Counted from the stretch's first letter, positions 1,492 to 58,516 are shown. The stretch: 64,000 bases of DNA from a virus (IMGVR_UViG_3300032323_000939:31506-95505); one strand, 5' to 3'. The notes: generated by a model from the sequence alone, not told the origin. Translations and numbers: made by a program.

Positions 1492-3047
1492 TACGCCTCA
1501 CTAAGGTTTATGTTCTCTTCTTTAATGCGGAAAATTTCTCCAGCACTTCCAGTTAGAGTTGTAAGCCCACTGTCACCCTCTTCATGCAAGGCAGTAACAT
1601 TAACGGTTTTTACTCCTGGTGCCTGTTGAAGAACAAACTCAATATCTACTGGATAGATTGTGTCTTGAAATTGCATTCCGTTATATCCAAATCCAGTAAG
1701 CAATGCTATTTTTAAGTTTTCCTCAACTTCAGCAACTGTGTACTGATCTAATTTTACGTATGAAAAAGTAATTACAACATCTACATAGGTAGGTGGTTGA
1801 ATGGTAACTGTTGTTCCAATTAAAACCTTATCAGACAGTGTTTCCTCTACTTCTTCTTTTATTCTTTCATATTCAGCGGTAGGGTCTCCATTATCATCTA
1901 ACCCAGGAGCCAGGTCGGTATCTAACGCAGTCCTACTTGGGGCAATATAGACAGTAACTGATGTCCAGACAGCCGCTGTCGCATTTGCTTTCCCTACCCC
2001 ACTTGCTGATAGAGATAGATCTGAAAAATCTTTTAATGTTACCGCTCTATTTCCAGAGCGCAAAGAGGCAGGAGCAGCAATTCTAATTTGTTGATCGCTC
2101 TCTGGATCAGATCCTCCAACACCAGTTGTAGCATTTGTAACTGTTACAGAACCTTGTAATGCTGTAAGTTGTGCCTCTGATAGCCCGTCAACATAGGTAA
2201 TAGTATCTATGACACTTGCTACAATATTTCCAACAGTTCCTCCACCAATAATATATTTTGCTCTTATCTCTGAGAATGAAGTTGGAATAACTCCAGATAC
2301 TCCATCACCAAAATTTATTGTGACGACGTTGTTTTCATCAACAAAGACCGTGTACACAAGATCAGTTGAACTGTAATCAATTAGATGCTGTACCTCAGTC
2401 CACTTAGAGTATATGTCGCCATCTTGAATGTAGATCTCAATTGATCCGTCTACCACTGGGGTTTCCCCTAATTCAAAAGACATATTAGGAGAACCATTAG
2501 ATGTGCCAATTAACTCTCCGTATGCATTTGTTCCCTCAGCAATTAGTGTCACTGATTGTCCATGAGAAGCACTGACCGTGTCTTCTCCAGGAACCTCATC
2601 TACAGCAGCAGGAATAGTTGCTTCTACGTTAGTTGTAAAGTAAAGGGTTTCAACAGTGTCGGCAGTCCTGACATCTCCAGCCACAACACTGCCTGCAGGT
2701 ATTGTTACGGTTGCGTCAGATGCGTTAAAGAAAGTTACATCAACTGTTGCTTGTCTATAGCCAGCAGGAACATATCCATATGTCTGGGCAATATTTAAAA
2801 GGCTGTCTCTTTGCGTAGCGGTTTCAATAAACGCTTCATTTGCTGTTCTATCAATATAGAAAGAAACCATGTCTCCTAGATATGCAAACGCTTCAACTAG
2901 AGCAACACCAAAGTCTGCTGGATCTGCTGCTGTCCAGTTTGGTACTCTCTCTTGGATACGAGTAATTAAGACCTCACGTAAAGAGTAATAATCTCTTCCT
3001 GTGTAATCAATAGAGATAGGGATATTTGATACAGGCGTTACTGTCAT
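1491..3047 (-). CDS. baseplate wedge protein (baseplate J / gp6-like)
   Basis: 'IDYTGRDYYSLR', 'DFGVALVEAFAY', 'FGDGVSG', 'GGSDPES...RAVTLKDF' motifs. Confidence 0.9.
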   Translation of the reverse strand: MTVTPVSNIPISIDYTGRDYYSLREVLITRIQERVPNWTAADPADFGVALVEAFAYLGDMVSFYIDRTANEAFIETATQRDSLLNIAQTYGYVPAGYRQATVDVTFFNASDATVTIPAGSVVAGDVRTADTVETLYFTTNVEATIPAAVDEVPGEDTVSASHGQSVTLIAEGTNAYGELIGTSNGSPNMSFELGETPVVDGSIEIYIQDGDIYSKWTEVQHLIDYSSTDLVYTVFVDENNVVTINFGDGVSGVIPTSFSEIRAKYIIGGGTVGNIVASVIDTITYVDGLSEAQLTALQGSVTVTNATTGVGGSDPESDQQIRIAAPASLRSGNRAVTLKDFSDLSLSASGVGKANATAAVWTSVTVYIAPSRTALDTDLAPGLDDNGDPTAEYERIKEEVEETLSDKVLIGTTVTIQPPTYVDVVITFSYVKLDQYTVAEVEENLKIALLTGFGYNGMQFQDTIYPVDIEFVLQQAPGVKTVNVTALHEEGDSGLTTLTGSAGEIFRIKEENINLSEA

Positions 3048-29573: not shown

Positions 29574-30701
29574 TTAGTTTGTGTAAACCTTGACGATTGC
29601 TTGGTCTGTAATTACACCAAGACCCCAGATTGCGTACCATGCAAGAGCATGCTCACGACCGAAGTCAAGAACACCACCATCACGTAGTTCAACTGGTAGA
29701 GAGATTGCGTGACCAAAAGCGTTGTCACCAATCATGATAGATTCGTAAACTTCAGCACCGTTACCAGTTGCTGATGTTAAGTAACCTGCTTCTGCTGTGA
29801 AGTTAGCAGACTCTGGGTTACCACCGCTTCCTGGGGCTGTGTTAGCCTTAACAGGAGCATTCCAATAATCAGTTGGTACACCAACAGATGTTGAAGTTGT
29901 GTAAGAAGCGTTAATTGCTAACTTCTTAACCTGAGTTGTTTCGATGAATACTACGTCGTATAGACGACCGATTTCACCTAGCATGAAGTTACCTGGAGCA
30001 GCGTACTTCGTAACTTCGATGAACTCTGGGTTCGAACGAATATCACGAGATTGCTTTGGATGTACGAATTGTACGTATGTCTCACCTAAGCGAGGAATGT
30101 TCTTTCCTGCAAGAGTAAGAGCAGCATCCTTTACAGCACCAGTTGATAACTTGAAGTTACCATCTAGATCTGAAATTTGTGTTGCTTTTGTACCTTCGTT
30201 GTACCAGTCGTTAACACCTTGTACTGATGAACGGTCATAACCGAACACTGCAGAAGTTGCTGCAGACAGTGTGTTACGTGCTTGTAGATCTAGGTATTGC
30301 GCCATGTGGCGACCTAGAAGACGTGACGCAGATGCCATAACGTCATCAAATGATGCGTTAAGTAATAGTTCAGAAACTGCTACTGCGTAGCCGTGCTCTG
30401 CAACTGTAATTGCAATCTGCTCTGCTGTTAATGCAGAAGTTGTCATACGAACACCCTCTGTAAGAGGTGTTGGATCGACAGCGAAGTTCTTGTAGCGTAG
30501 GAAGTTAACACGGAGACCAGGTGCTACACCTAGTTCTGTCTTCTTAACTGCAAATTGTTCGAATCGAAGAATTGGCATTGCCTGGAACAAAATTTCTTTT
30601 GACCAGATTGTTTGAATCGCTTGATTCAGGCTTGAGTTCGAGCCTGAGTAAGCGGTTGGGGCGGAAGCGAGTTGCCCTGTACCTGTAATTGCACTTGCCA
30701 T
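29574..30701 (-). CDS. major capsid protein (N4 gp56-like family)
   Basis: 'F.AMPILRFEQFA', 'LTEGV', 'VHPKQ..D', 'GEIGRLYDVVFIET', 'DFGR...AWY'. Confidence 0.92.
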   Translation of the reverse strand: MASAITGTGQLASAPTAYSGSNSSLNQAIQTIWSKEILFQAMPILRFEQFAVKKTELGVAPGLRVNFLRYKNFAVDPTPLTEGVRMTTSALTAEQIAITVAEHGYAVAVSELLLNASFDDVMASASRLLGRHMAQYLDLQARNTLSAATSAVFGYDRSSVQGVNDWYNEGTKATQISDLDGNFKLSTGAVKDAALTLAGKNIPRLGETYVQFVHPKQSRDIRSNPEFIEVTKYAAPGNFMLGEIGRLYDVVFIETTQVKKLAINASYTTSTSVGVPTDYWNAPVKANTAPGSGGNPESANFTAEAGYLTSATGNGAEVYESIMIGDNAFGHAISLPVELRDGGVLDFGREHALAWYAIWGLGVITDQAIVKVYTN

Positions 30702-30735: not shown

Positions 30736-31512
30736 TTAACCGAACAGTCCCTGACCACGATTGCTTGCTGCAGTGCCAAGTAACTTGGCTCTTTGTTTCG
30801 CATAGTCCGCCAATGACATTTCCCTGATTGAATCAGGCGTGTACGATTTTTGTTCCGAGTCATTATCGAGGGGTCCTGCGGCAGGATTAGTAATTCTAGT
30901 TCCTGCCATTTGTTGTCTTGCGCTTTGCATCGCTTGTTGAGCGGATGACAAAATTCGAGCAGATTTTTCTTTTAACATTGCGATGCTCTGCTCAACCTCA
31001 TCAGCATTGTTTCCATCAACTAGATCAAGAAGTTCAGGAACAATATTTTCCCGTTCTTGCTCAATACGTTGTTGACGATAATTCATAACTTCTTGGAACT
31101 TACGTTCTTGATCTAGGAGCGCAAAAGCACGTTCTCTTTCAAGACGTTCAGTATCTAATAGAGCCTGAAATTCTTGCTCCTTCTTTAGGAGGAGTTCTTT
31201 AGCAGAAAGTTCAGATTCTTCTTGTTCTTTCTGCAGTGCTGTTTTACGGGCTTCTTCTTCAGCAATACGTTTTTCACGTTCTGCTTCTTTAGTTGCTTGA
31301 TCTTCACGAGCCTTCTTCAAAGATGCAAGTTCTTCTTTCATCTTTTCCATCTGTGGGTACAATTTTGCTTTCTCTTGTTCACGAGCCTTAGCAATATCGT
31401 CTGCGCTATACACAGAATTTACCTCACTTGTGTTTTCTACTGCTGGAATTGCCGCCAGAATTTCTGGAGACAATAGGTCAGCATTCTCTACGGTATTTTC
31501 CATAGTAATCAC
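30736..31512 (-). CDS. capsid scaffolding protein
   Basis: coiled-coil E/K-rich protein between portal and capsid; C-terminal 'IREMSLADYAKQR..LLG'. Confidence 0.8.
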   Translation of the reverse strand: MITMENTVENADLLSPEILAAIPAVENTSEVNSVYSADDIAKAREQEKAKLYPQMEKMKEELASLKKAREDQATKEAEREKRIAEEEARKTALQKEQEESELSAKELLLKKEQEFQALLDTERLERERAFALLDQERKFQEVMNYRQQRIEQERENIVPELLDLVDGNNADEVEQSIAMLKEKSARILSSAQQAMQSARQQMAGTRITNPAAGPLDNDSEQKSYTPDSIREMSLADYAKQRAKLLGTAASNRGQGLFG

Positions 31513-31633: not shown

Positions 31634-33370
31634 TTATCCCTTGTCTACTGTTCTCCTTTGTGGAATCTTTGTTCCATAGGCATCAGTGACAAGTTTATTT
31701 CGGATCTCTGACTCTGCAGATTTTTCAATACCCATTAACTCTTGGTTTTCTGGAGTTGCTGCATTTTCAGGGGTCTCAGGACCAGACATTCCATCTCCTA
31801 AGATATCCCCATCACCCATTGGTTGAGGTTGCATTGGGATAGCACTGCTTCCATCAGGACCAGGCATCATTCCAGTCATATCCATAATTTGTTTTTGAAT
31901 TTGAATTTTAACAAGTTGTAGAGCACCATCAGCCTCAGCATCAGCCATAAGTTCTTGACGAATCTCTTGTAGTTTCTCTTCTGGAAACTCTTCTCCAAGT
32001 TGACGTAATGCGCCTTCTTTAGACTCTAATCCCATTCCAAGTTTAGTTTGAATTTCATTTAATACAATTAACTTATCTAATGGGAGAGGTTGTGGGAACT
32101 GTGCGTAGTTTATGTAGGTAATTGGATCATTAGGATCTAGTTGAGTTACTTGGCCATCTTTGATTGGACCATCTTCTTCTGGGTTGTATAAGAACGATTC
32201 AGGTTCTTTAATAGCAAGAGTCTTTATAACTAACTCATTAATCTTTTCTAAACCTTTTCCATACTGTGCAACTTTTTGTGAATAACGATTCATCAATGGC
32301 TGGTATTGAATGGACAGCGCCACACCAGATGTGTTTGAAATTGGTTGAACTTGTCCCAGTGCGGTTTCTGGAATGTTCATGATCTCATGCATTGAGCGCT
32401 TTAATAGTTCTAGGTACTTCAAGGCTCCGTCAATACCTTGTGCACCGCCTTCTAAGTTGAAGACTTGAGCATCTTTTGGAAGACCGCCCCAAACCTTCTT
32501 AGCACCTTTTTCTAAGTTAGAGGCTTTAGCACCCACGATTACCGTTACTGGTGATGCGTGGTAGTTAATGATGTCAGCGACATCAGTGCTAATTTCGTTG
32601 TATGCACGGTTTATAGTGATGATGTCGTGTGCGTCGGAGAGACCCCACGGCGATCCTGAAACAGGAACATTAGGTATGTGAACTACAGGGACTATGCCAA
32701 GAGGATTTGGACGTGAGTCAATTAGTTCATCGTTGACATATTCTTCAATCATGTCATCAGTAAGAATTTCAGTGTATGTAAATACTTGACGAGTACCTTC
32801 TAGAGATGTTCCCCAAAAACGATACTTTTGTTTAAAACGTAGTAAGCGTGTGCGGTCATGTGGGTGGAACTCAGGAAAACAAAATGAAGAGTTCATAGGA
32901 AGAATACGAACACGACCTGGATGCAGTAATCCTGCAGTATCTGTCCATGGCTCTTCGTAAGCAACCTTTACAAAACAATCTCCAGTAATACCACCTTGTT
33001 GTCCCATTTCAAGAAGTACACGCATCTTGTCATTGTCTATTTCCCAAACACGCTCCAAGCGGTCAGGAATAATGGCCTCAGTCGCTTTCGGTGAACGATA
33101 ATGAACACCACGGCCAAAAGTAAAACGAGAAAGATAATCATTAAAAGCACGGTAATAGTTAACAGCAATCTGCATTTCGCCTTGCTCACGGCGATACCCC
33201 CAGTGATGTCCTAGATACATCGCCCAGTTTAAAGAGTAACGGTTTAGGCGAGGACCGTGGACTTCAAATTCTTCATCAGCAAGTTCTACTAATCCAAGAG
33301 GAGAAATAGAGATAGTTAAGTCGGAAGACGCCGCTCTATACGATGGCGGACTAAAGTCCAAAAATGACAT
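31634..33370 (-). CDS. portal protein (SPP1 gp6-like)
   Basis: 'GDCFVKV', 'NPLGIVPVVHIPN...WGLSD', 'SGVALSIQYQPL'. Confidence 0.9.
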   Translation of the reverse strand: MSFLDFSPPSYRAASSDLTISISPLGLVELADEEFEVHGPRLNRYSLNWAMYLGHHWGYRREQGEMQIAVNYYRAFNDYLSRFTFGRGVHYRSPKATEAIIPDRLERVWEIDNDKMRVLLEMGQQGGITGDCFVKVAYEEPWTDTAGLLHPGRVRILPMNSSFCFPEFHPHDRTRLLRFKQKYRFWGTSLEGTRQVFTYTEILTDDMIEEYVNDELIDSRPNPLGIVPVVHIPNVPVSGSPWGLSDAHDIITINRAYNEISTDVADIINYHASPVTVIVGAKASNLEKGAKKVWGGLPKDAQVFNLEGGAQGIDGALKYLELLKRSMHEIMNIPETALGQVQPISNTSGVALSIQYQPLMNRYSQKVAQYGKGLEKINELVIKTLAIKEPESFLYNPEEDGPIKDGQVTQLDPNDPITYINYAQFPQPLPLDKLIVLNEIQTKLGMGLESKEGALRQLGEEFPEEKLQEIRQELMADAEADGALQLVKIQIQKQIMDMTGMMPGPDGSSAIPMQPQPMGDGDILGDGMSGPETPENAATPENQELMGIEKSAESEIRNKLVTDAYGTKIPQRRTVDKG

Positions 33371-41646: not shown

Positions 41647-41880
41647 TTATACTGGTTTCCAATTTTTATTTATAATAAACTTTGATGCGTTGTTCTGTGA
41701 GTTTACTGACTCTCCTTGCACACCCTTACCACGAGATGCCCAAGAAACTACGCTAGGTTCTGCTTTTGATTTATAACCTAAGTTAGTATTAAATACAAAC
41801 TCTTGTTTTCTTGTAGTACGGTTTGGATTAACCGCTAATCTTTTTCTATCTAATTTTTTAGAACCAAATACAGAATCCAT
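41647..41880 (-). CDS. hypothetical basic protein
   Basis: 77 aa, TAATG coupled. Confidence 0.6.
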   Translation of the reverse strand: MDSVFGSKKLDRKRLAVNPNRTTRKQEFVFNTNLGYKSKAEPSVVSWASRGKGVQGESVNSQNNASKFIINKNWKPV

Positions 41881-42245
41881 TAACTAACACCGCCATTTGA
41901 ACCATTAAACGTAACTCCACCTATACCCATGGTGTCTCTTGTAGATGCGGTCTTACCTTTACTTATTGGTTTTTTACGTTCTTTCATGCTTCCTTCACGA
42001 GGATCTGTACCTGCTGACATAGCGCCAACCATGTTAGGATAATTAGAAAAATGATAGCCGTTACCCACAAACCCAGATTCACGTTTACGTTTAAACCTAC
42101 GTCGCTGAGTGTTCTCTACAGACTCTGACTTTTGAAATTGATTAGATAAGTTACTTGCCATTTGACTTACTCCATACCTTCCGTATGTACCACCTGGTCC
42201 GCCATACATTCCTTTTCCAGTATTGTAAAAATCACTTCCTGCCAT
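41880..42245 (-). CDS. hypothetical low-complexity protein (internal NLSNQF)
   Basis: 121 aa Gly-rich. Confidence 0.6.
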   Translation of the reverse strand: MAGSDFYNTGKGMYGGPGGTYGRYGVSQMASNLSNQFQKSESVENTQRRRFKRKRESGFVGNGYHFSNYPNMVGAMSAGTDPREGSMKERKKPISKGKTASTRDTMGIGGVTFNGSNGGVS

Positions 42246-42438
42246 AAGTTAAAACTCCTTCAGGATCAAATACAACTAAAGATTGAAGAACCAATTTGTT
42301 CCCCGTACCTCTAGCGTGATGTCCACAGAAGTAAAGTTCTCCACTTGCTAAAGTTGCACGAACCATTGCCTGTGCATTGCATTTGTCACATCGTTCTGTA
42401 ATTAAAATTGCTCTGTGCGTGTCTAGCGCCGTAGACAT
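42232..42438 (-). CDS. small Zn-ribbon protein
   Basis: 'RCDKC.AQA.VR......LYFCGHH'. Confidence 0.7.
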   Translation of the reverse strand: MSTALDTHRAILITERCDKCNAQAMVRATLASGELYFCGHHARGTGNKLVLQSLVVFDPEGVLTYGRK

Positions 42439-42614
42439 TAGAAAAATCCTGGCTTTGCTATTTGTTGGTTGGCTCCTGGAGCATACTTGTTTTGAACTGA
42501 AGATATCTTTAAAGGCTGTGGATCATCAAACTTTAAGTTTTTTGGCATAGCACCCATCTTAGTCATACTACTGGTGTTTAGACTAAATTGACCCTTTGAC
42601 AAGTTCTGATTCAT
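42438..42614 (-). CDS. small protein with N-terminal NLSKGQF tag, 58 aa
   Basis: MNQNLSKGQFSLNTSSMTKMGAMPKNLKFDDPQ...; TAATG coupled downstream. Confidence 0.6.
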   Translation of the reverse strand: MNQNLSKGQFSLNTSSMTKMGAMPKNLKFDDPQPLKISSVQNKYAPGANQQIAKPGFF

Positions 42615-42674
42615 GTATTAATTTTGCCCTCTTTATCGTGTACTGTACGCTTATACAAAAGGAGGATAGACCCT

Positions 42675-42815
42675 ATGAAATTATGGGAAGTAATAAAAGC
42701 ATTTTGGTGCAAACATGGAGAAGTTGTAAACTCATCATGTCCATTTACTGAGAAAACCTATGAGGTATGTGTGGATTGTGGTGTAACTGTTTCGGTGATT
42801 AGAACTCACTCGTAA
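42675..42815 (+). CDS. small Cys-containing protein, 46 aa
   Basis: MKLWEVIKAFWCKH...CVDCG; AGGAGG RBS. Confidence 0.6.
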   Translation: MKLWEVIKAFWCKHGEVVNSSCPFTEKTYEVCVDCGVTVSVIRTHS

Positions 42816-42994
42816 TGCCAATTTACACATATGCGTGCATGTCTTGTGATACGGATTATGAAAAAGAGCGTAGCATAAACGATGCAGAACCAAAATACAT
42901 CTGCGAAAGTTGTGGCTACGCTCTAATTCGAACTTATACTCCAGTTACCGCCGTGTTTAAAGGCGGAGGGTTTTACAAAACGGATAACCGTTAG
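42815..42994 (+). CDS. FmdB-family zinc-ribbon protein, 59 aa
   Basis: MPIYTYACMSC...CESCG...FKGGGFYKTD. Confidence 0.85.
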   Translation: MPIYTYACMSCDTDYEKERSINDAEPKYICESCGYALIRTYTPVTAVFKGGGFYKTDNR

Positions 42995-43314
42995 TTATAG
43001 TTAGGGTCAATTTTTGCTTGCTTGTCAGCAGCCTGACGATTTTCTACCTCTGTATCGGCAACAGTCTTTGCGCCTCTATCTACAGTTGAAAATGCAGCAT
43101 TGATTTCATCTAGAGACAGTTTGCCATCATCCATAAATGCACGGGCTAACTTTTCTACTACTGCTGCGACCGCTGTAAGACCAGCAACTGTTACTGCAGT
43201 AATTGTATCTACGCCAGCAATAGCACCAGCACCAATCACAGACAGACCAGATGCTGCAAAGACAGCAACAATACGCATTAATACATTTTTAAGTGATGCC
43301 ATAGTGTTCTTCAT
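42991..43314 (-). CDS. membrane protein (holin-like)
   Basis: two TM helices then 'DDGKLSLDEINAAF'. Confidence 0.65.
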   Translation of the reverse strand: MKNTMASLKNVLMRIVAVFAASGLSVIGAGAIAGVDTITAVTVAGLTAVAAVVEKLARAFMDDGKLSLDEINAAFSTVDRGAKTVADTEVENRQAADKQAKIDPNYN

Positions 43315-43351
43315 ACCGTTCTCGATTCCCCCTCGGATTGAAGTACTATTA

Positions 43352-43615
43352 TCAGTCTTGTTGGATTCCCATACGTTCTAAATACTTCTCTTTTTCACTC
43401 ATAAGGTATTCTTCAATCCTTTTATACTGAATTTGAACCTGTTCTGAGGTTGCTTCTATTTGTTCTGCTGTCATTTCTTTATTTAAATCCTTAAATGTCT
43501 CTACTGCCAAATCTAGTTCAGTTTTGGCTAGTGCTGCTTTTAATTGTGCGTCTTTCCATAAAAATTCTGCGTGTTCTTCTTTTCTTTGTTTTCTTTTATC
43601 CTGTGTCTTAGACAT
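43352..43615 (-). CDS. hypothetical coiled-coil protein
   Basis: 87 aa, GGAGG RBS. Confidence 0.65.
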   Translation of the reverse strand: MSKTQDKRKQRKEEHAEFLWKDAQLKAALAKTELDLAVETFKDLNKEMTAEQIEATSEQVQIQYKRIEEYLMSEKEKYLERMGIQQD

Positions 43616-43652
43616 ATAGATCCTCCGTATATTTAGCCTATCAGAATGTTAG

Positions 43653-43698
43653 GAGCAGTTTATGCGGGCTCATGCTCAGGAGCCACATATTCAGTTGT
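43653..43698 (-). ncRNA. candidate H-type pseudoknot RNA element
   Basis: ACAACUGAAUAUGUGGCUC-CUGAGCAU-GAGCC-CGCAUAAAC-UGCUC: P1 GGCUC/GAGCC, P2 GAGCA/UGCUC. Confidence 0.45.
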
Positions 43699-43742
43699 TA
43701 GCGCAGTGTAACTTCACATGCATGTGATGCACACCACAAATG

Positions 43743-44288
43743 TTACTTATATTGTTCAATCTCCTGATATGGTCCAGATGTAAAGGCTGTTATCTTAGAT
43801 GCCGCTTCCATGGCTTCCATAGGTGTAGCACCAACCCATAGAGCGCCCAAGGCGTAGGTTCCACCAGAACCAATGGTGTAAAAACCCTCTACAGTTCTAA
43901 TTACAGATAGATCTTGGTCAATATCAAATAGTTCCCCACCAACAGCCATAATGAACTGAAATCTTAATCCATCTTTAGATTTATCGTGGTCTTCACTAAA
44001 GTCATATCCATTATCAACTAGACACTTACGCAAAGAAGGCATGGCCTTAGAAATCATAAAGTGATAGACATCTTTTGCATCTTTAGCAGTTAACTTTGGC
44101 GGAGTCCATATGTGTTGGGCAATATCGCATGGAGACACCTCACCAGCACCAGCAATTAAGAAGTCACCACGTTCTGCAATCTTCTTCATTTGTTCGTGAC
44201 GATATACTCGTCCGTTATCATCCGTTACTTGATTGTCTGCAAGTAATACACAATGATCTTCATACTGTACCCCAATGATTGTGGTCAT
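43743..44288 (-). CDS. proteasome-beta/HslV-like Ntn threonine peptidase
   Basis: N-terminal MTTIIGV...LLADNQVT, K at expected position, 'IGSGGTYALGAL'. Confidence 0.8.
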   Translation of the reverse strand: MTTIIGVQYEDHCVLLADNQVTDDNGRVYRHEQMKKIAERGDFLIAGAGEVSPCDIAQHIWTPPKLTAKDAKDVYHFMISKAMPSLRKCLVDNGYDFSEDHDKSKDGLRFQFIMAVGGELFDIDQDLSVIRTVEGFYTIGSGGTYALGALWVGATPMEAMEAASKITAFTSGPYQEIEQYK

Positions 44289-44365
44289 CGACATCCCCTT
44301 TCAGTAGAAAGCCCCCCTAGGATACCAGAAGCATCCAGGAGGGCTATAGGGTTAATATGTCCGAT

Positions 44366-45106
44366 TTATAGGAGTTTGACCAGTTCTGCCCAGGTCTTAG
44401 GTCCAATGATGCCATTAGAGTCTAAGTTCTTATGGTTGTCTTGGAAAGCAATTACCTTGGCTCTTGTCTTTGGGCCATAGTTTCCATCAGCAATTAGGCT
44501 AAGTGCTCTCTGGATTATCTTTACACCTTCGCTCTTATCTCCAGGTTTAATAGTGCCTGGGAAAGCAGGAGCCTCTGGTGCAGGAATCTTTGCTGTAACT
44601 TCGTTACCAGAATAGTTTGGACGACCAAACCCAACAATAGAAACCATAACTTTCTTTTTATTGGCAATATAGCCACGAGTCTTAACTGCGACCTCTCCAC
44701 CATTACGTTGATCTCCTTTAGGATTGCCAGCAGTATTACCTTCAATACAAGTAACTGTTCCATCTCCGTTGTTCTCAACTACGATACCTACGTGGGAGAT
44801 TCTATCTACACCATCTCCAGGAAAATCAAAATAAGCAATATCGCCAGGTTGTGGTGATGCAGACTTTGCGTCTGTCCAAGTTCCCATCTTCTTGAAGGCA
44901 GCGGCACCTGCTACGGTTGATACCGTATTAGGGACCTTTACTCCTGCTTCTTTAGCGCACCACATAACAAATGATCCGCACCAAGGTAAGAAATTTGCTT
45001 TAGTAAAGGCACCGTACTTGGTTTCATTGTCTTTTGGACCTTCAATAGTTCCTACTTCTTTTTTTGCTACCGCAATTAGAGCGGCTGCCGTGTTCTTGTC
45101 TGCCAT
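44366..45106 (-). CDS. endolysin: CHAP domain plus peptidoglycan-binding domain
   Basis: 'PWCGSFV.W', 'PQPGDI..F', 'SHVGIV', 'IEGNT'; 'V..IQ.AL...DG.YGPKT...FQ...GIIGPKTW'. Confidence 0.9.
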   Translation of the reverse strand: MADKNTAAALIAVAKKEVGTIEGPKDNETKYGAFTKANFLPWCGSFVMWCAKEAGVKVPNTVSTVAGAAAFKKMGTWTDAKSASPQPGDIAYFDFPGDGVDRISHVGIVVENNGDGTVTCIEGNTAGNPKGDQRNGGEVAVKTRGYIANKKKVMVSIVGFGRPNYSGNEVTAKIPAPEAPAFPGTIKPGDKSEGVKIIQRALSLIADGNYGPKTRAKVIAFQDNHKNLDSNGIIGPKTWAELVKLL

Positions 45107-45155
45107 AGGGCTCCCTTCGTAAAAGACTATTGTTGCAGTATGGTAGGTTTAGCAC

Positions 45156-45683
45156 ATGGCTAAAATTGTTGAGTTATCTAAAGATGAAGTAAGAATCTGT
45201 GCCCAATTAGGTATGGAGCGATGGTTAGCAAAATTTGGATCAACTGACCGTCCCAACTACGCACTAGGAAAAGCCAACGGCACCCTAGAGCGAGAGTTAC
45301 AAGCAAATGTCCGTGCAAATGTCGCTGAGTATGCGGTGGCTAAGTTGTACAGGATGCCTTGGACTGTCCCATGGTATCCAAATGAAGAACATCCGTATCG
45401 TATGGATCATCCTGATGTTGGTACAAATATTGAAGTGCGTTGCATTAGAACTAGAGACGCAATACCTGTATGGAAGAAAGATGTAAATAAAGGCGCAATA
45501 ATTGTTGGTGCCTATGTTGAAGATCAAGAGTATTTCTCTTCAGTAAAGGTATTTGGTTACTTACCAGTAGAGGAATGCCAGAAAGATGAATGGTGGACTC
45601 CATATGAGAACTCATGGCGAGTTCCTACGTCAGAGTTTATTGACGAGATTCCATCCTACTCATCAACACCTTTGCACGTTTAG
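45156..45683 (+). CDS. hypothetical protein, possible PD-(D/E)xK nuclease-like fold
   Basis: 'AEYAVAK...PDVG.NIEVR'; leaderless after TGG-TAGGTT. Confidence 0.55.
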   Translation: MAKIVELSKDEVRICAQLGMERWLAKFGSTDRPNYALGKANGTLERELQANVRANVAEYAVAKLYRMPWTVPWYPNEEHPYRMDHPDVGTNIEVRCIRTRDAIPVWKKDVNKGAIIVGAYVEDQEYFSSVKVFGYLPVEECQKDEWWTPYENSWRVPTSEFIDEIPSYSSTPLHV

Positions 45684-45993
45684 AAGGCTCTTTAGTTAAG
45701 AAGCCTCTTCCCTTGGCTTTTTCATAAGGAACTGGAGTTTTAAATTGGTCTGCTGTTGGATCAACCACATCTCCTGATTTATGTTTTAAAAACCAGTGAC
45801 TAGTTCCTTCATGTTTAATTTGCATTGGAGTGTAACCAGCAGCCTTACCACCTAGAGAGTGGTACACCGCTTCACTTGCTACATAGCAATGCCCAGTAGT
45901 TTTGCATTCGTGTCCACGAAACTCTGGACTACGCAAATCATCACTGAGATGCTCTCTAACATTAGTAACTATCTGGTGATCGTAGTTATTCAT
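45637..45993 (-). CDS. papain/transglutaminase-like protein (C-H-D)
   Basis: 'GHCYVASEA', 'SHWFL', 'VVDPTADQF'. Confidence 0.55.
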   Translation of the reverse strand: MNNYDHQIVTNVREHLSDDLRSPEFRGHECKTTGHCYVASEAVYHSLGGKAAGYTPMQIKHEGTSHWFLKHKSGDVVDPTADQFKTPVPYEKAKGRGFLTKEPSKRAKVLMSRMESRQ

Positions 45994-46496
45994 TGAAACT
46001 GCCTAAAGTGTCCAGGATGAATATTGGTAGGAACATATTCTTTGCCCATCTTCTCATCGTAACTTCCTTTATCGGTAAAGTTAGTAGTCATTGCTAAGTG
46101 ACCGCCTAAGAAGTTTTCTTTTCTTTCACCTAATCCTGGTTGACGAAACACTGTTACTGGCACATGAGATACGCCTTCTGCCATTGCTGCTTCTAATCTG
46201 TGGTGGCCTTCTCCAACAACTCCCCACTTATTAGCATGATCATATGCAATCATAATTGGATTGTTAATGCCTTTACCTTTTTGAATATCTCCTCTAATTC
46301 CAGCAATAGTCTTTTCACTAGAAGGCTGTGCATCAGCGCCTCTGCGTCTGTGTTCCATTAAAGGAATTAAACGCTCAGTTCTAACCATGCCAGTAGCACT
46401 CTCTGTTGGATCTCCTTCAAGATGACCCTTGCCACCTGCTTTTCGTTGTTGCACATAATCAGGAACAGGAACATTAAATTGTTTTTGGTTTAACAT
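45990..46496 (-). CDS. ParB/Srx-like domain protein with N-terminal LNQKQF tag
   Basis: 'GINNPIMI...VGEGHHRLEAA...GVSHVPV'. Confidence 0.75.
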   Translation of the reverse strand: MLNQKQFNVPVPDYVQQRKAGGKGHLEGDPTESATGMVRTERLIPLMEHRRRGADAQPSSEKTIAGIRGDIQKGKGINNPIMIAYDHANKWGVVGEGHHRLEAAMAEGVSHVPVTVFRQPGLGERKENFLGGHLAMTTNFTDKGSYDEKMGKEYVPTNIHPGHFRQFQ

Positions 46497-46957
46497 TATG
46501 CTGTCATCTCTTTAGGAGTTTTATATGTGCGTCTTCTTGCTGGACGTTTACTGTCTTTACTCGCTACCCAAGAAGAAAAAGTGGGTGACTCATTTCTTCT
46601 TAGCCCATTCCAATTACCTGTAACAGGATCTGCTTCAGGTCCAGAGATACCAGTAACTTTTACTTTTGCTCCAGGTTTAACTGGAACTTCTTTTTCTGGA
46701 CTTTTAATATCTTTATCATTTAGATCAACTTGGGCACGGCTTAGTTTACGACTATTTGTCTCTACTGCACTGATAGGTACTTCTGCATGCATTACGGTGC
46801 CAAATGATCCAGCAAATCTTCTTGCTACTTTAGGGTCTGCTGACCAATGCATTCCAAGAGGTACGTCTTTTCTAAACTTACGAGTTACACCACGATGTAC
46901 TTGAAAAGTTAATTCTGGTTGATTCCACTGTCTTCCTAAGTTATTTTCAGCAGCCAT
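46496..46957 (-). CDS. ADP-ribosyltransferase-like protein with N-terminal NNLGRQW tag
   Basis: 'VHRGV', 'LGMHWSADPKVARRFA', 'EKEVPV'; start at ATG 46957 (TAATG). Confidence 0.55.
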   Translation of the reverse strand: MAAENNLGRQWNQPELTFQVHRGVTRKFRKDVPLGMHWSADPKVARRFAGSFGTVMHAEVPISAVETNSRKLSRAQVDLNDKDIKSPEKEVPVKPGAKVKVTGISGPEADPVTGNWNGLRRNESPTFSSWVASKDSKRPARRRTYKTPKEMTA

Positions 46958-47310
46958 TATGCTTTCCACTTTCTTGGTGGAGTGTATGTGCGTGTGCGGT
47001 CTCTTTTGTCACTTAATTTAGTGACAGCAGTTACGTGCACGGTGCTACCTTTCTTAACAGGAATCTCATTCTCCCAATACTCGTCATAGACTTGATTCTT
47101 CTTTAAGACGTCAGGGCGAGTCTCACGACTCTTCTTAGCCACTTGACCTTCAATAACAACACCTGGTCCTCGCCGAATAGGATTTCTTGCAAAACCTACC
47201 GCTCTCTCTGGATCTTCTGTCCAGTGCATGCCAAGAGGCTTCTTAACATCTGTAGTAGAACTTAATCCACGATACAGAGTATGAAACTGAGTAGAAGATA
47301 AATTACTCAT
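46957..47310 (-). CDS. ADP-ribosyltransferase-like protein with N-terminal NLSSTQF tag
   Basis: 'LYRGL', 'LGMHWTEDPERAVGFA', 'ENEIPV'; paralog of 46496..46957. Confidence 0.55.
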   Translation of the reverse strand: MSNLSSTQFHTLYRGLSSTTDVKKPLGMHWTEDPERAVGFARNPIRRGPGVVIEGQVAKKSRETRPDVLKKNQVYDEYWENEIPVKKGSTVHVTAVTKLSDKRDRTRTYTPPRKWKA

Positions 47311-47554
47311 GTTCTTCCCTTGGTTCAGAGGTTTGACGCTTCTTTACGTTATAGCCAACCCTTGGACCTTGCATTAAATCTTTAATTCCCTCAGCACTAG
47401 ACATCTGTGTCTTATTTAAGTTGTTGTTTACCCATGCAGATATGTACTCAGATCCGCCTTCGTAATCTACGCTCTTAACTTTAAATCTTTCCTGGACGGA
47501 ATCCTTTCCGTAGCCAGTTTGAGAGTAACCTGTAAACTTAGACTTCTTCTTCAT
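47303..47554 (-). CDS. hypothetical basic protein
   Basis: 83 aa, overlapping neighbours. Confidence 0.6.
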   Translation of the reverse strand: MKKKSKFTGYSQTGYGKDSVQERFKVKSVDYEGGSEYISAWVNNNLNKTQMSSAEGIKDLMQGPRVGYNVKKRQTSEPREEHE

Positions 47555-47811
47555 AAGTAATCTTTACCGTAGTTCTCTCCATGCACCTTCTTTTGGACTG
47601 CTGGTACGAAGTGCTTGTGTGGAGTAGTTCCTGCAACTCTGTCACCTGCTTTATCGTGTTCGGCTTTATGCGCCTTCTCATCTATACCTGTGCGAGACCA
47701 TCCACCTTTTGGAGTAATGCCATGTTCTTTACGCAAATGTTCGGCAACAGACATATTAAATTTAATAGGAGTAAATTTAAACTGCTTACCTAAGTTATCG
47801 GATGCAGCCAT
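47551..47811 (-). CDS. His-rich small protein with N-terminal DNLGKQF tag
   Basis: MAASDNLGKQF...EHLRKEHG...H.AEH...HKH. Confidence 0.65.
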   Translation of the reverse strand: MAASDNLGKQFKFTPIKFNMSVAEHLRKEHGITPKGGWSRTGIDEKAHKAEHDKAGDRVAGTTPHKHFVPAVQKKVHGENYGKDYL

Positions 47812-47943
47812 TTACTTACTGACCTTTGGCTTGTATGGCTCAATGCGAGATTTAATTGTTCCATCTTTACGCATAATTACAATCCAACCATCTTTAATTA
47901 CTTTCTTGTTAAATGGTTCGTTGCGTGTGTATTTAGCACTCAT
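47812..47943 (-). CDS. small basic protein, 43 aa
   Basis: MSAKYTRNEPFNKKVIKDGWIVIMRKDGTIKSRIEPYKPKVSK. Confidence 0.55.
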   Translation of the reverse strand: MSAKYTRNEPFNKKVIKDGWIVIMRKDGTIKSRIEPYKPKVSK

Positions 47944-48257
47944 TTGTGTTCTCCTGTAATCATAAAGCCATGAGGTGAGGAATAGAACCTCTCACCCTCT
48001 ATGTTCCCAGATTCTTCTTTAACTTCTTTGCTAACTGGCTCTACTTTATAGACCTTCACTGGATTCTTCTCAAAACCTTTTGGCATCTTAGTCTCGCCAA
48101 AGAATCTTGCTTGCCCTGGATCACTTGTTGCCCAGGCACGAGCCATGCGGCCTTCACCCTCAGTAACAGCAGGAAATATAAAGCCACCACTTACATCTGC
48201 ACGAGTGCCGTGGTACATATCAGGAAACTGCTTAGGAGATAAGTTACGGCTACTCAT
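47940..48257 (-). CDS. Arr/ART-like protein with N-terminal NLSPKQF tag
   Basis: 'MYHGTRAD...AWATSD...A..F...VYKVEP' resembles the rifampin ADP-ribosyltransferase (Arr) layout. Confidence 0.55.
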   Translation of the reverse strand: MSSRNLSPKQFPDMYHGTRADVSGGFIFPAVTEGEGRMARAWATSDPGQARFFGETKMPKGFEKNPVKVYKVEPVSKEVKEESGNIEGERFYSSPHGFMITGEHK

Positions 48258-48385
48258 GCCTTGGTGCTACTTGCTGTATTAGATGCCTTAGATTTAGGGA
48301 CTATCTGCATAGCGACATTTACGTATTTATCTTTTGGCATGATCTTAACGCCAAATTGTTTAGGCGATATGTTCTTAGAACTCAT
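48254..48385 (-). CDS. small protein with N-terminal NISPKQF tag, 43 aa
   Basis: MSSKNISPKQFGVKIMPKDKYVNVAMQIVPKSKASNTASSTKA; ATGA overlaps at both ends. Confidence 0.6.
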   Translation of the reverse strand: MSSKNISPKQFGVKIMPKDKYVNVAMQIVPKSKASNTASSTKA

Positions 48386-48483
48386 TCTTTCACCTCACGA
48401 GAGTCAGTCTCACAGATGCACTTGCATGTGTCTACTGTGCAGACGCCGTAACTAATTTGATGAGTACATAATTTACAGGTCAT
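48382..48483 (-). CDS. Cys-rich micropeptide, 33 aa
   Basis: MTCKLCTHQISYGVCTVDTCKCICETDSREVKE. Confidence 0.55.
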   Translation of the reverse strand: MTCKLCTHQISYGVCTVDTCKCICETDSREVKE

Positions 48484-48485
48484 AA

Positions 48486-49001
48486 TTAGAACAACTTATA
48501 CTTTATTGAATCTGGCTTCTCTTCTCTTAACTTCTTAGACATGTGTAGCGTCTGATCAGATGCTGCCTTGCCCACATTTAAGATAGATCCTTTAGGAGTC
48601 GTCTTGTGCATATAGTTAAACATCTGACGCCCAATGCCGCCGCCCTGGTATTTTTCGTGCACACGCATGTAACCAATATTTGTATCAGCAATTACTTTTG
48701 GCTTTGATCTTACTTCATTGCCCTTCTCATCCTTGGTAACGAATGAGATTCCACTTGACCTTGGTTCTTCACGATAGAAGTCTGAGTAACCAACTAGACC
48801 AGGCTCACCCTTTGGATTCTCTCTCACGCCGCCGCCTTTTGGGTCGACTGTTCTTGGTGTTGTGTCTTTGGTGTCATAGACAGATAGACGTCGAGGCTCA
48901 CCAAATGAACTAATGGGATGCTTGTACGCCATCTCTTCTGGCATATCGTGCTCTACGTAATGACGACCTGCTGCGTCTTGGAACTCTGCGTATCTAGGCA
49001 T
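48486..49001 (-). CDS. GNAT-family acetyltransferase
   Basis: 'IGYMRVHEKYQGGGIGRQMF' acetyl-CoA motif A; leaderless ATG 49001. Confidence 0.75.
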   Translation of the reverse strand: MPRYAEFQDAAGRHYVEHDMPEEMAYKHPISSFGEPRRLSVYDTKDTTPRTVDPKGGGVRENPKGEPGLVGYSDFYREEPRSSGISFVTKDEKGNEVRSKPKVIADTNIGYMRVHEKYQGGGIGRQMFNYMHKTTPKGSILNVGKAASDQTLHMSKKLREEKPDSIKYKLF

Positions 49002-49033
49002 GAGCACATTGTCGCACTCACGGCCCGCTATTT

Positions 49034-49753
49034 TTACTCTAAAAGGTTTTCTTTTATTAACTTCAAGATTCGTTTGTGCCTATTACTTTCAATAAATCTC
49101 TCATAACGATAGGAGAGAGGCTTAACTTTTAAAAACTCACTACTTTTTACTACTTGGTTTGAGATATCAAGCAGTTCATCGGTAGCCTCAAAATGTTTTA
49201 GAACTACCTGCTTATCTGTTAAGAACTCAATGTAGAGGGCTGGCTCACCCTCTGTTACTGAGATGGAGTTGTTACCCTCCCACAGTATGTACGATAATCT
49301 TACAGGCCTGAACCAATTGCTAATATTAAAGACGCCACTTGCTACAAACCCCGTCTTACTATCTGAGGTATTGTGCAGGTACGCTGGCGTTGCCTTAATC
49401 TTTAGAGACTCTTCAGAAAAGAATAGCCAGCCAAAATCAAGGTCTATTGAATAGCATCCCTTTAACGGAGAGATTCTAGGTTGCCAAATATGCTCTTTAT
49501 CAACCTCTGCCATCGGATTATCTAACTCACCACTTAATGTAGCGGTTGAACTAAATGCATGGGTTAAGGTATAAGTGTTCTTTAATAAATCTGGCAATGC
49601 ACTGCACTGTCTGTAATTTCCAATATTTGATCCGTTGCCTGGAGGTAAGGTGGATGCCAGTGGTACTGGCTTATTAAGAAGTAGGTTTATATAGGTCTGA
49701 CGGTCTTTACCAGTATGAACTGCCCAATAGACTGTGACTGTCTCTTTACTCAT
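49034..49753 (-). CDS. conserved phage protein, distant relative of 17306..17986
   Basis: 'C.A..D.LKNTY', 'FFSEESL', 'SG.FNISNWFRP', 'GEP..YIEF'. Confidence 0.6.
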   Translation of the reverse strand: MSKETVTVYWAVHTGKDRQTYINLLLNKPVPLASTLPPGNGSNIGNYRQCSALPDLLKNTYTLTHAFSSTATLSGELDNPMAEVDKEHIWQPRISPLKGCYSIDLDFGWLFFSEESLKIKATPAYLHNTSDSKTGFVASGVFNISNWFRPVRLSYILWEGNNSISVTEGEPALYIEFLTDKQVVLKHFEATDELLDISNQVVKSSEFLKVKPLSYRYERFIESNRHKRILKLIKENLLE

Positions 49754-49901
49754 CTAACCACCCTAATGTATAAATTCTTTGGCACTGCTATCTTAACCCA
49801 CATTGCACGTTCGCCGCACCTAGCCATCTGATAGGGCCGAATAATTTACTCATTAGCCATCTGGCTACTGCCTAGATTGCTGGGTGTAAAAATCTTATCT
49901 G

Positions 49902-50075
49902 CTACTTGAGACTGAGGTATAGGCCCAGTGCCATTAGCCATATCATGGCAATTACTCCCAGGAGTATCTTTACATAAATGTAAACTGGCGATTTTAGTCT
50001 TCTGGCATCCCAGGCGACGTACAGGGCTACAGCGGTGACTATGATCATGGCTAGGTAATCTGTTCTTAATAGCAT
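49902..50075 (-). CDS. small two-TM membrane protein, 57 aa
   Basis: MLLRTDYLAMIIVTAVALYVAWDARR...VKILLGVIAMIWLMALGLYLSLK. Confidence 0.5.
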   Translation of the reverse strand: MLLRTDYLAMIIVTAVALYVAWDARRLKSPVYIYVKILLGVIAMIWLMALGLYLSLK

Positions 50076-50343
50076 CTGGTAATCCTACTCTCTATATATA
50101 CCGTAAAAGAGTACAAGAAAATAAATACTATGGCGAATTAGATACTCCACCAGACTGCAGGGGCGCCCTCTGGATGCTCTCTGACCCATTTGGCATGCAT
50201 GATATTGACAAATGTCCAGTCGATATCGTGATTTTCTCGCTTACGCTCCTGCTCAACGAGCATATCCCACAGTTCTTCACTCATAGGGCCCATTCTACGA
50301 CCCTTTCGGCTACTGCTTAAGGCCAAACCCCTCAACCATGCCT

Positions 50344-50353
50344 CTCACCTGGC
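50344..50353 (+). repeat. CTCACCTGGC direct repeat, left copy
   Basis: identical 10-mer at 62431..62440; both sit at the edges of the site-depleted block. Confidence 0.55.
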
Positions 50354-50765
50354 CGTTCCTTCTGTGATTTTGACTTAAGGGTGGGGGGGTTTCCAAATAA
50401 TTATGGTGTTAACACCTTGCCCCTGACTATTAATCAGGTGCGAACTGGTTAACATGAGCGTAATTACCAAGTGTTCCACTTTGCTTGATGACGAATTGAT
50501 GACGAGATACTTTGCGAGTTCGGCTACTGCTGGAATTGCTGGCAATCTTGTGCGACCACAACCAGCCCACCAGCCAACTCTCCGAGTTGTTATCAGGTCA
50601 TTGTGTAATTACTAGCCATGTATCAAAACAATATGAACATATCAATCAGCCACAGGTATATCTATCTCTTATATCTATCTATATATAAATGATAGTAATG
50701 ATCTATTTTTAATATATCTAAGGGGTGCTACGCCCCCCTTTGAAACCCCCCAACTAATAAAGGGG

Positions 50766-51137
50766 CTATTCCTTTTCTAAATACTCAACCGCTTTGCGTA
50801 ATACATTCGGGTCATCTCTCAACATTCCAATCGCCCTATTACAGTTGTGGCATAACCAGCCACGCACCTTGCCAGTTCGGTGATCGTGGTCAATCGCTAA
50901 TCCCTTTGTGGTGTCGTGGTCATTCACTCCGCAGATCGCACACTTGTAATCTTGGTTCTCTTTCAATATCAATAACTCTTGGAATGGCACTCCATAAATC
51001 TTTGCCAATCTTTGTGGTCGCTTCTTTTTTTGCCGACAAGCACCGCAGGTATTTCGTAGATAGCCATAACCAGTTAATTCAAAAAGAGTTAACTCCTTTT
51101 CAAACTGGCACTCATTACAAATTTTGGTTTCGGACAT
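50766..51137 (-). CDS. endonuclease VII-type HNH nuclease
   Basis: 'QDYKCAICG...LAIDHDH.TGKVRGWLCHNCN.AIG...DD...L.KA.EYL'. Confidence 0.88.
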   Translation of the reverse strand: MSETKICNECQFEKELTLFELTGYGYLRNTCGACRQKKKRPQRLAKIYGVPFQELLILKENQDYKCAICGVNDHDTTKGLAIDHDHRTGKVRGWLCHNCNRAIGMLRDDPNVLRKAVEYLEKE

Positions 51138-57988: not shown

Positions 57989-58187
57989 CGAAGTGCTTGA
58001 TGAAAGTTTATTCGATCAAACATTCGACACCGACCCACTATGTAATTGTGAGTGCGGTTGTGAAGTTCCAGTATCAGGACAATGTGTTGATTGCTCAGAA
58101 AACAACGGACATCAAAATAACAATGGGTTTCCAAAATACGATCAACTTAACGAAGCAACTATCAAATACTTAAAGGGGAAAAAATGA
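57981..58187 (+). CDS. small Cys-rich protein
   Basis: 'CNCECGC......CVDC'. Confidence 0.6.
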   Translation: MYDEVLDESLFDQTFDTDPLCNCECGCEVPVSGQCVDCSENNGHQNNNGFPKYDQLNEATIKYLKGKK

Positions 58188-58516
58188 GCGACAACTTAAA
58201 CCAAGATCAAAAAGATTTAATTAATTCGGTTAAATTCGCAACTGAGTTTTTAAAGATTATTCGTGGATTTAAAGTAGATCAACAACGCACCGATAGCCTT
58301 CCAGTTGAGGTTAAAGAATATATAGCGAATGAGCATCTAAATACTTTAATTGCCGATCATGGATTAGAGCCTGAGATGTTAGTTTGGGGATTAGTTCACA
58401 TAATTGAAGTCTTATTACGAACAAGTGAAATAAGTCCTGATGATCTTGTAATAATTATGGAACAGTATGTAGATTTTGTTAAAGATAGACCCGATTATTT
58501 TGGAGAGGATAAATGA
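58184..58516 (+). CDS. hypothetical protein
   Basis: 110 aa, ATGA coupled. Confidence 0.7.
   Translation: MSDNLNQDQKDLINSVKFATEFLKIIRGFKVDQQRTDSLPVEVKEYIANEHLNTLIADHGLEPEMLVWGLVHIIEVLLRTSEISPDDLVIIMEQYVDFVKDRPDYFGEDK

Follow-up and report, generated by a model that had tools for sequence, protein, structure and literature searches.

We analysed a 64,000-nt stretch of viral DNA (IMGVR_UViG_3300032323_000939:31506-95505, hereafter the window), which makes up bases 31506-95505 of a 95,505-bp contig, and found that a series of unrelated small proteins encoded on its minus strand share a short N-terminal peptide, hereafter the tag, whose full consensus is M-S-A-[EQ]-D-N-L-S-x-x-Q-F and whose short form is M-S-N-L-[SN]-x-x-Q-F. 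The evidence presented below showed a genuine tag that stands at the N-terminus, is under selection at the protein level and is both modular and flexible. By analogy with the leaders that address proteins to the head of phage T4, loading into the capsid is the most likely single reading of the tag, and one that we favour only tentatively. The motif is undescribed in the published literature, as far as this was searched.

The tag is N-terminal and conserved as protein

A six-frame scan of the window with the relaxed regular expression N[LIV][SGNTA]x(0-3)Q[FWY] gave 11 matches, seven of them on the minus strand at 42152-48373, and the other four were scattered over the 64 kb with none at an N-terminus. 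With the narrower pattern N-[LI]-[SGN]-x(1-2)-Q-[FW], seven minus-strand occurrences were found at 42.1-48.4 kb, six of which began 2-5 residues past the ATG, namely MNQNLSKGQF (42614), MAAENNLGRQW (46957), MSNLSSTQF (47310), MAASDNLGKQF (47811), MSSRNLSPKQF (48257) and MSSKNISPKQF (48385). The scan bore out the shared N-terminal motif that an initial annotation of this DNA had noticed across the array; six of the seven tagged starts that it had counted begin with the motif after the ATG, and the seventh, MLNQKQF at 46496, is only a degenerate copy. The same annotation had stated that the copies differ synonymously and are conserved as protein rather than as DNA, which also held: the relatives carry 133 distinct DNA versions of the tag, and codon use at its Asn, Leu, Gln and Phe positions resembled that in the rest of the same genes, with only Ser biased, to TCT. 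The combination of varied DNA and background-like codons indicated that selection acts on the peptide. An N-glycosylation sequon (N-x-S/T) was considered and rejected, as the NLG and NLN variants break it.

Across the window and related contigs (1.09 Mb), the strict motif occurred 399 times versus ~46 times in shuffled sequence, a comparison in which the contigs are kin and the events not independent. An ATG lay at most 8 codons upstream of 307 of these 399 motifs, and most of a remaining 71 stood behind GTG or TTG starts. A position-specific scoring matrix (PSSM) built from 90 tags and used to scan the whole genome revealed members beyond the window, at genome coordinates 6102 (MPNLQPQQF), 9039 (MLSNEQF) and 9250 (MPLSSSQF), together with weaker look-alikes that included the N-terminus of a DUF7178 protein.

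Some occurrences were unusual in position, size or completeness. The window itself holds a 110-amino-acid (aa) gene on the plus strand (58184-58516) that begins MSDNLNQDQK, a partial tag without the final Q-F (PSSM score 11.3). In one sister genome (G001, contig L076), a 267-aa protein (48280-49083, minus strand) carries SQNLSRPQF at residue 247, near its C-terminus, and a 525-aa protein (L061:8737-10314, plus strand), of unusual size for a tag-like protein, begins MPLGKQF. Contigs L040-L042 and L046 (e.g. L040:~1640-2075, plus strand) carry a ~145-aa ParB-like open reading frame with NLNPKQF 12 residues upstream of its stop codon, which looks like a scar left by loss of a stop codon and of the body of the next tagged gene.

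The tag is combined with many unrelated cargos

Relatives were collected as 49 viral contigs with an 87-98% identical ADP-ribosyltransferase (ART)-like gene, and further contigs were reached through distant ART-like proteins or the back-translated tag. Within the 49-contig set, the tag was found on cargos missing from the window, including a small GNAT, four more Arr-like types and a Zn-ribbon protein, and the more distant contigs carried arrays of 3-8 tagged genes per locus with many further cargos. Clustered on their cargo parts alone, strictly tagged proteins of ~85 related viral contigs formed at least 29 unrelated families, and the tag was kept in cargo homologues that were only 28-40% identical. 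Both N-terminal enrichment and cargo swapping were thus found in related viral contigs, giving strong support to the modular combination of tag and interchangeable cargo that had been proposed from the window.

A profile search with the ART-like family over 1.84 billion representative proteins gave 525 matches. Among the best 150 of these, 96 were small standalone proteins, at least 55 of which bore the tag itself or a near variant, for instance NLSNELFF. An ART domain homologous to that of the window was also found in 2-15 copies within giant proteins of 727-3714 aa, and the tag was never found in 52 giant multi-domain proteins with this same domain, indicating that it is not part of the ART fold. 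The tagged single-domain genes look like an unlinked version of the arsenal of polyvalent proteins.

Tagged genes of the window and their predicted folds

All genes described below lie on the minus strand unless stated otherwise. A 43-aa basic peptide of pI 10.3 (MSSKNISPKQF..., 48254..48385) has orthologues, MSAQNLSPQQFGVKVMPK..., in relatives, and is followed by a tagged Arr-like ADP-ribosyltransferase of 105 aa (MSSRNLSPKQF-PDMYHGTRAD..., 47940..48257). The AlphaFold2 (AF2) model of the latter had a predicted local distance difference test score (pLDDT) of 86, with the tag as a low-confidence coil, and its best Foldseek matches were the rifampin ADP-ribosyltransferases Arr 9iaf and 2hw2 (E 5e-4, template modelling score 0.61). 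The family has HG[ST] in strand 1, with H16 and G17 invariant; the Pfam Arr family PF12120 was matched by some distant homologues, and the window protein itself gave no Pfam match.

The tagged minimal ART-like protein of 117 aa (MSNLSSTQF-HTLYRG...ExE, 46957..47310) gave an AF2 model of pLDDT 88, in which residues 1-8 were of low confidence and F9 started strand 1. Foldseek assigned it a probability of 1.0 to the Rhs ART toxins TreX/TreTu and to the A chains of cholera and pertussis toxins, with E values of only 0.03-0.2, and R14 and E82 are invariant in the family and E80 nearly so. Its tagged paralogue (46496..46957, 153 aa from the ATG at 46957, MAAENNLGRQW...VHRG...ExE) was recognised by alignment. 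Model and alignment agree with an ART fold of the R-S-E type (Arg in strand 1, ExE), from which ART activity is predicted. The Arr-like and ART-like labels first given to these genes were therefore confirmed by the AF2 and Foldseek fold matches.

The neighbouring protein (45990..46496, 168 aa) is putatively ParB-like, with PHROG matches of 1e-6 to 5e-3, led by the ParB-like nuclease phrog_26387 at 1e-6, and had no match in Pfam; phrog_3147 (575 aa) matched both this gene and an ART-like gene. Its own tag, MLNQKQF, is eroded, and its orthologues have the full tag (MNNLNQKQF, MSNNNNLSKKQF). A tagged His-rich protein of 86 aa (MAASDNLGKQF..., 47551..47811) has orthologues, MSAEDNLSPKQFKWTP..., and was assigned no fold, and a tagged GNAT from a relative exceeded the Pfam threshold.

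Two further tagged proteins, Gly-rich and very basic, are conserved core genes directly upstream of the packaging and head genes. The first is a basic peptide of 58 aa (MNQNLSKGQF..., 42438..42614) that is conserved in relatives, with 51% identity in G001. The second is a very basic Gly-rich protein of 121 aa (41880..42245), in which MASNLSNQF had been called internal; the preceding 28 residues are conserved as protein in relatives, so that the motif, at residues 31-38, is truly internal. Overall, the tagged proteins were single-domain, with a median of 115 aa, a maximum of 181 aa and a median pI of 9.2. All eight tagged window proteins had a pI of at least 8.0, and the tagged set was more basic than the other small proteins of the genome.

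The source phage, its clade and the hypervariable island

An overlap of 123 bases between the ends of the 95,505-bp contig indicated a complete, circularly assembled virus genome, and the genome is classed with direct terminal repeats and as 100% complete. The G+C content of the window is ~41%. Its major capsid protein shares 60-62% identity with its counterparts in the Streptomyces myophages BRock, LuckySocke, Alone3 and GiJojo, and a portal, a large terminase, a coiled-coil scaffold and a protein of the actinobacterial family DUF7455 were recognisable. The capsid identity, the head genes and DUF7455 together place the virus as an uncultured, low-GC relative of an actinophage group; the source is an uncultured lake-water phage of actinobacteria, and contigs of its clade are frequent among IMG freshwater samples. 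Two complete sister genomes (G001 and G002; 94.7 and 96.3 kb) have capsid proteins 96-97% and scaffolds 69-80% identical to those of the window, and the terminases of two more tag-bearing contigs are 93% and 85% identical. Because these capsid, scaffold and terminase identities are high, all tag contigs that could be placed belong to one clade, within which the capsid protein is 93-97% identical. The scaffold of BRock is homologous to that of the window, with 28% identity over 226 residues.

The array lies in a hypervariable island (45637..51137), most genes of which are absent from the sister genomes or only 30-40% identical there. The genes at 45.6-51 kb mostly lack a counterpart in G001 and G002, while the head genes are 69-97% identical. 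From sequence comparison, the tag-bearing contigs that could be placed are one clade with a hypervariable effector island. The description of the tagged genes as late-strand genes could not be upheld, as the strand in question carries nearly all genes of the genome.

Several untagged genes share the array. An 83-aa gene (47303..47554) has a degenerate NNNLNKTQM at residue 43 (PSSM score 14.7), possibly the decayed remnant of a tag where two cassettes became fused, and no homologue of the gene was found in G001 or G002. The GNAT gene of the initial annotation (48486..49007) is indeed untagged and within the array, and its GNAT assignment is weak (21 bits, under the cut-off). The supposed papain-like gene is a CHAP + PG_binding_1 endolysin (44366..45106), a lysis gene outside the tag system. 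Beside it, 43743..44294 encodes an HslV/proteasome-like N-terminal nucleophile peptidase (PF00227, 23.9 bits) that starts MTTIIGV...; it is a candidate processing enzyme as judged from sequence, and no HslU partner was seen. The minus-strand run is broken by a small plus-strand insert (42624-42994) encoding a CxxC...CxxC Zn-ribbon protein, FmdB-like by eye, and a DUF7455 Zn-ribbon protein typical of actinobacteria (42232-42438, minus strand) adjoins this insert.

The tag also occurs outside low-GC freshwater phages. Among 185,579 species genomes, the exact extended tag was present in a single one, a high-GC Actinomycetota bin. In two contigs of this metagenome-assembled genome (L084 and L085; 199 and 385 kb), a 159-aa gene beginning MSAQDNLS[RK]AQF occurs in two copies (L084:5665-6144 and L085:3055-3534), each adjoining a divergent 118-aa Cys-rich gene amid rve, DDE_3 and IS110 transposases, with housekeeping genes (G6PD, M50 peptidase) nearby. 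On a viral contig with a G+C of 0.60 (L091:2823-3368), a 181-aa ART-like protein, MSAQDNLSPQQFFHGT..., lies among structural-looking genes, indicating that the tag is not confined to low-GC freshwater phages.

Capsid loading and other possible readers of the tag

We infer a single reader for all tags. The portable, flexible tag heads small, mostly basic accessory proteins of a ~95-kb freshwater actinophage clade, with cargos that range from two kinds of ADP-ribosyltransferase, ParB-like proteins and GNATs to Zn-ribbons and tiny disordered peptides. In the mechanism that we propose, the tag would be recognised by one conserved partner, while the cargo genes would turn over fast in the hypervariable island. 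The likeliest partner would be the assembling procapsid, through its scaffold, its portal or the inner capsid surface, such that tagged proteins would be packed in the head without proteolytic removal of the tag, delivered with the DNA, and put to modifying host targets or disarming defences. Loading and injection are suggested by analogy with the capsid targeting sequence (CTS) of T4 and by the type of cargo. The small size and basic charge of the tagged proteins, and the two conserved, very basic ones encoded upstream of the packaging genes, would also fit this reading. Packaging and injection have been predicted for polyvalent proteins, whose most frequent enzymatic domain is the ART (Iyer et al. 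2017, PMC5512222), so that a standalone domain would need a ticket of its own.

Under capsid loading, the coiled-coil scaffolding protein (30736..31512) and the portal protein (31634..33370) would be candidate readers beside the major capsid protein (29574..30701), which is without a delta domain. Residues 9-16 of the scaffold, ADL[LF]SP[EQ]I[LV] (or DANLSPIE), are conserved in ~60 of 75 relatives, and the N-terminus of the BRock scaffold is Pro/Asn-rich. As a look-alike of the tag, this scaffold N-terminus (ADLLSPEIL) was rejected, with a PSSM score below -1 and a rank outside the top 22 matches of the genome. The untagged neighbours, comprising the GNAT-like gene, a 239-aa gene and a YunG-like gene, were likewise rejected as readers, since all three are absent from G001 and G002; in particular, the GNAT-like protein of 48486..49007 is not the reader of the tag.

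A number of results weigh against capsid loading. In the complete genome no match to an S78/ClpP-type prohead protease was found, nor was any PHROG protease in the head module, though a protease of a novel kind may be encoded. With this protease not found, no delta domain on the capsid protein and a separate coiled-coil scaffold, the cleavage after QF suggested in the initial annotation is unsupported. BRock has 61% capsid identity and a homologous scaffold, and no tag was found in its whole record, indicating that this head type does not need one; none was found in Actinomycetia phage DSL-LC01 either. When cultured phages were searched at the nucleotide and protein levels, the array, the ParB-like gene, the Arr-like gene and a distant ART-like member had no match. 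The bacterial tagged gene had no phage structural genes within 9 kb, and no homologue of the window capsid protein was found in the genome of the Actinomycetota bin. To these are added the tagged genes in the DNA-metabolism region of the genome, the internal tag of 41880..42245 behind its conserved extension, the few tags far from an N-terminus, and the failure to find a promoter motif shared by the array, as a sigma-70 scan fell below shuffles and 9-mer enrichment over 20 intergenic regions gave nothing useful. The specific proposal that (D)NLSxxQF directs proteins, without being cleaved off, into a protease-less, scaffold-built head is put forward as possible rather than probable.

The strongest alternative, though itself unlikely, is that the tag is a short linear motif for docking onto a conserved protein or machine of the Actinomycetota host (transcription, translation, replication or chaperone), which would gather many different phage enzymes at a single site of the infected cell, with no virion role. 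The bacterial gene context and the conserved internal tag are explained no less well by such a docking motif than by capsid loading. The motif is short and flexible and is found at an internal position, tagged genes also lie amid DNA-metabolism genes, and the nearest cultured phage of the same head type, BRock, lacks it; moreover, its presence in a bacterial island rich in insertion sequences and on a high-GC viral contig means that the reader could be common to distant Actinomycetota cells instead of belonging to the capsid. On the other hand, the cargo activities are very diverse, which makes one target less obvious, and a generic short linear motif needs neither an extreme N-terminal preference nor a conserved M-S-A start. 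The bacterial case is effectively a single observation from a metagenome bin. To our knowledge the tag is also unlike the known motifs that bind the clamp, single-stranded DNA-binding protein or RNA polymerase, a further point against docking; the clamp-binding motif QL[SD]LF differs from the tag in order and in its invariant residue.

We consider it improbable that the tag is a processing or turnover signal, by which a protease (the phage HslV-like peptidase, or the Clp or proteasome system of the host) would determine when toxic effectors are destroyed or activated. Leu and Phe/Trp, the invariant residues of the tag, act as N-degrons in bacteria, and cleavage directly ahead of either would leave an N-end-rule residue at the new terminus. 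The tag of 41880..42245 tolerates an upstream extension, and the HslV/proteasome-like peptidase adjoins the array and is conserved in 3/3 complete genomes; co-occurrence inside one clade is, however, without weight. As a tag-specific partner the peptidase was rejected, its gene being widespread in phages without the tag: relatives were found in ~97 cultured phage records, including phAPEC8-like coliphages, and DSL-LC01 is among the tagless phages with such a gene. In the ART-like model, furthermore, strand 1 begins with the Phe, which the fold probably requires.

Still less probable is that a modifying enzyme recognises the tag and adds an acetyl, ADP-ribosyl or other mark, as in leader-peptide systems, where many substrates share one enzyme. 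GNAT and ART genes do occur within the same arrays, but ARTs and GNATs are themselves tagged cargo, and no untagged enzyme is conserved beside the arrays in the sister genomes.

Very improbable, finally, is the absence of any addressing role, with the tag as an ART-fold structural element spread by descent, a joint of cassette recombination or a translation-start effect: the motif does abut strand 1 in the Arr-like and ART-like families (..QLFHGT, ..ELFFEAHRG), cellular Arr-2 has a vaguely similar DNYKQVQGPF ahead of YHGT, and the tag Ser prefers TCT, but many cargos are not ARTs (GNAT by Pfam, ParB-like, Zn-ribbons and peptides of 43-58 aa), the ART domains of polyvalent proteins lack the tag, the 133 DNA versions have background-like codon use at 4/5 positions, and 21 bases that vary synonymously offer too short a match for homologous exchange. 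The remaining weight is left open to readers other than those considered here.

Implications

As an address label, the tag would single out a large, fast-changing set of host-modifying, probably anti-defence proteins, which could be found by an eight-residue motif instead of by homology, in phages whose hosts are among the most abundant freshwater bacteria. Such a label would also extend the principle of a leader with interchangeable cargo beyond the T-even phages, to a head type seemingly without a maturation protease. If capsid loading is true, the whole set of injected effectors of an abundant freshwater actinophage group, dozens of enzyme families, would become readable from sequence, and the tag could serve to load foreign proteins into these capsids. 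If a host protein reads the tag instead, the tag would lead to a vulnerable hub that actinobacterial cells have in common.

Comparison with known systems

The closest parallel is the CTS of the T-even phages, on which, with the internal proteins, Repoila and colleagues reportedly worked in 1994. The T4 CTS is MKTYQEFIAE and ends in a prohead-protease site, L/I-x-E. As with the tag, a short N-terminal leader (10-12 residues) is all that unrelated small proteins (Ip1-3, their relatives and Alt) have in common, the genes lie in hypervariable loci whose content changes from one close relative to the next, an ADP-ribosyltransferase is among the cargos, and the leader alone identifies new members; the T-even cargo also comprises anti-defence proteins. 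In contrast to the T-even case, the tag has no similarity to MKTYQEFIAE, the head is of another type (BRock-like, built with a separate scaffold), the phages infect actinobacteria and the system is known from genes alone. Neither a T4-type prohead protease nor the L/I-x-E site was found here, so that any loading would be cleavage-independent. The proteins of the T-even Ip loci have been described as sharing nothing beyond their N-terminal packaging leader (PMC3012670; PMC12373910).

Polyvalent proteins have the same repertoire as the tagged genes, with ART (often in several copies), ParB-like and acetyltransferase domains (PMC5512222). In the giant proteins these domains are covalently linked and without a tag, whereas here each domain is a separate small tagged gene, which suggests that the two arrangements are two solutions to one delivery problem.

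Short terminal peptides also send unrelated enzymes into a shell in encapsulins, by cargo-loading peptides, and in bacterial microcompartments, by encapsulation peptides, the encapsulin shell having the HK97 fold; there the motif is different and the shell is an organelle rather than a virus, and the likeness is one of analogy. The ejection proteins of P22 are few, conserved and essential and have no common tag, unlike the tagged set described here, which is large, variable and accessory. The scaffold-dependent incorporation of ejection proteins in P22-type phages (PMC8402733) nevertheless resembles the loading proposed here. Their procapsid, which has a separate scaffold and no protease, takes up proteins destined for injection.

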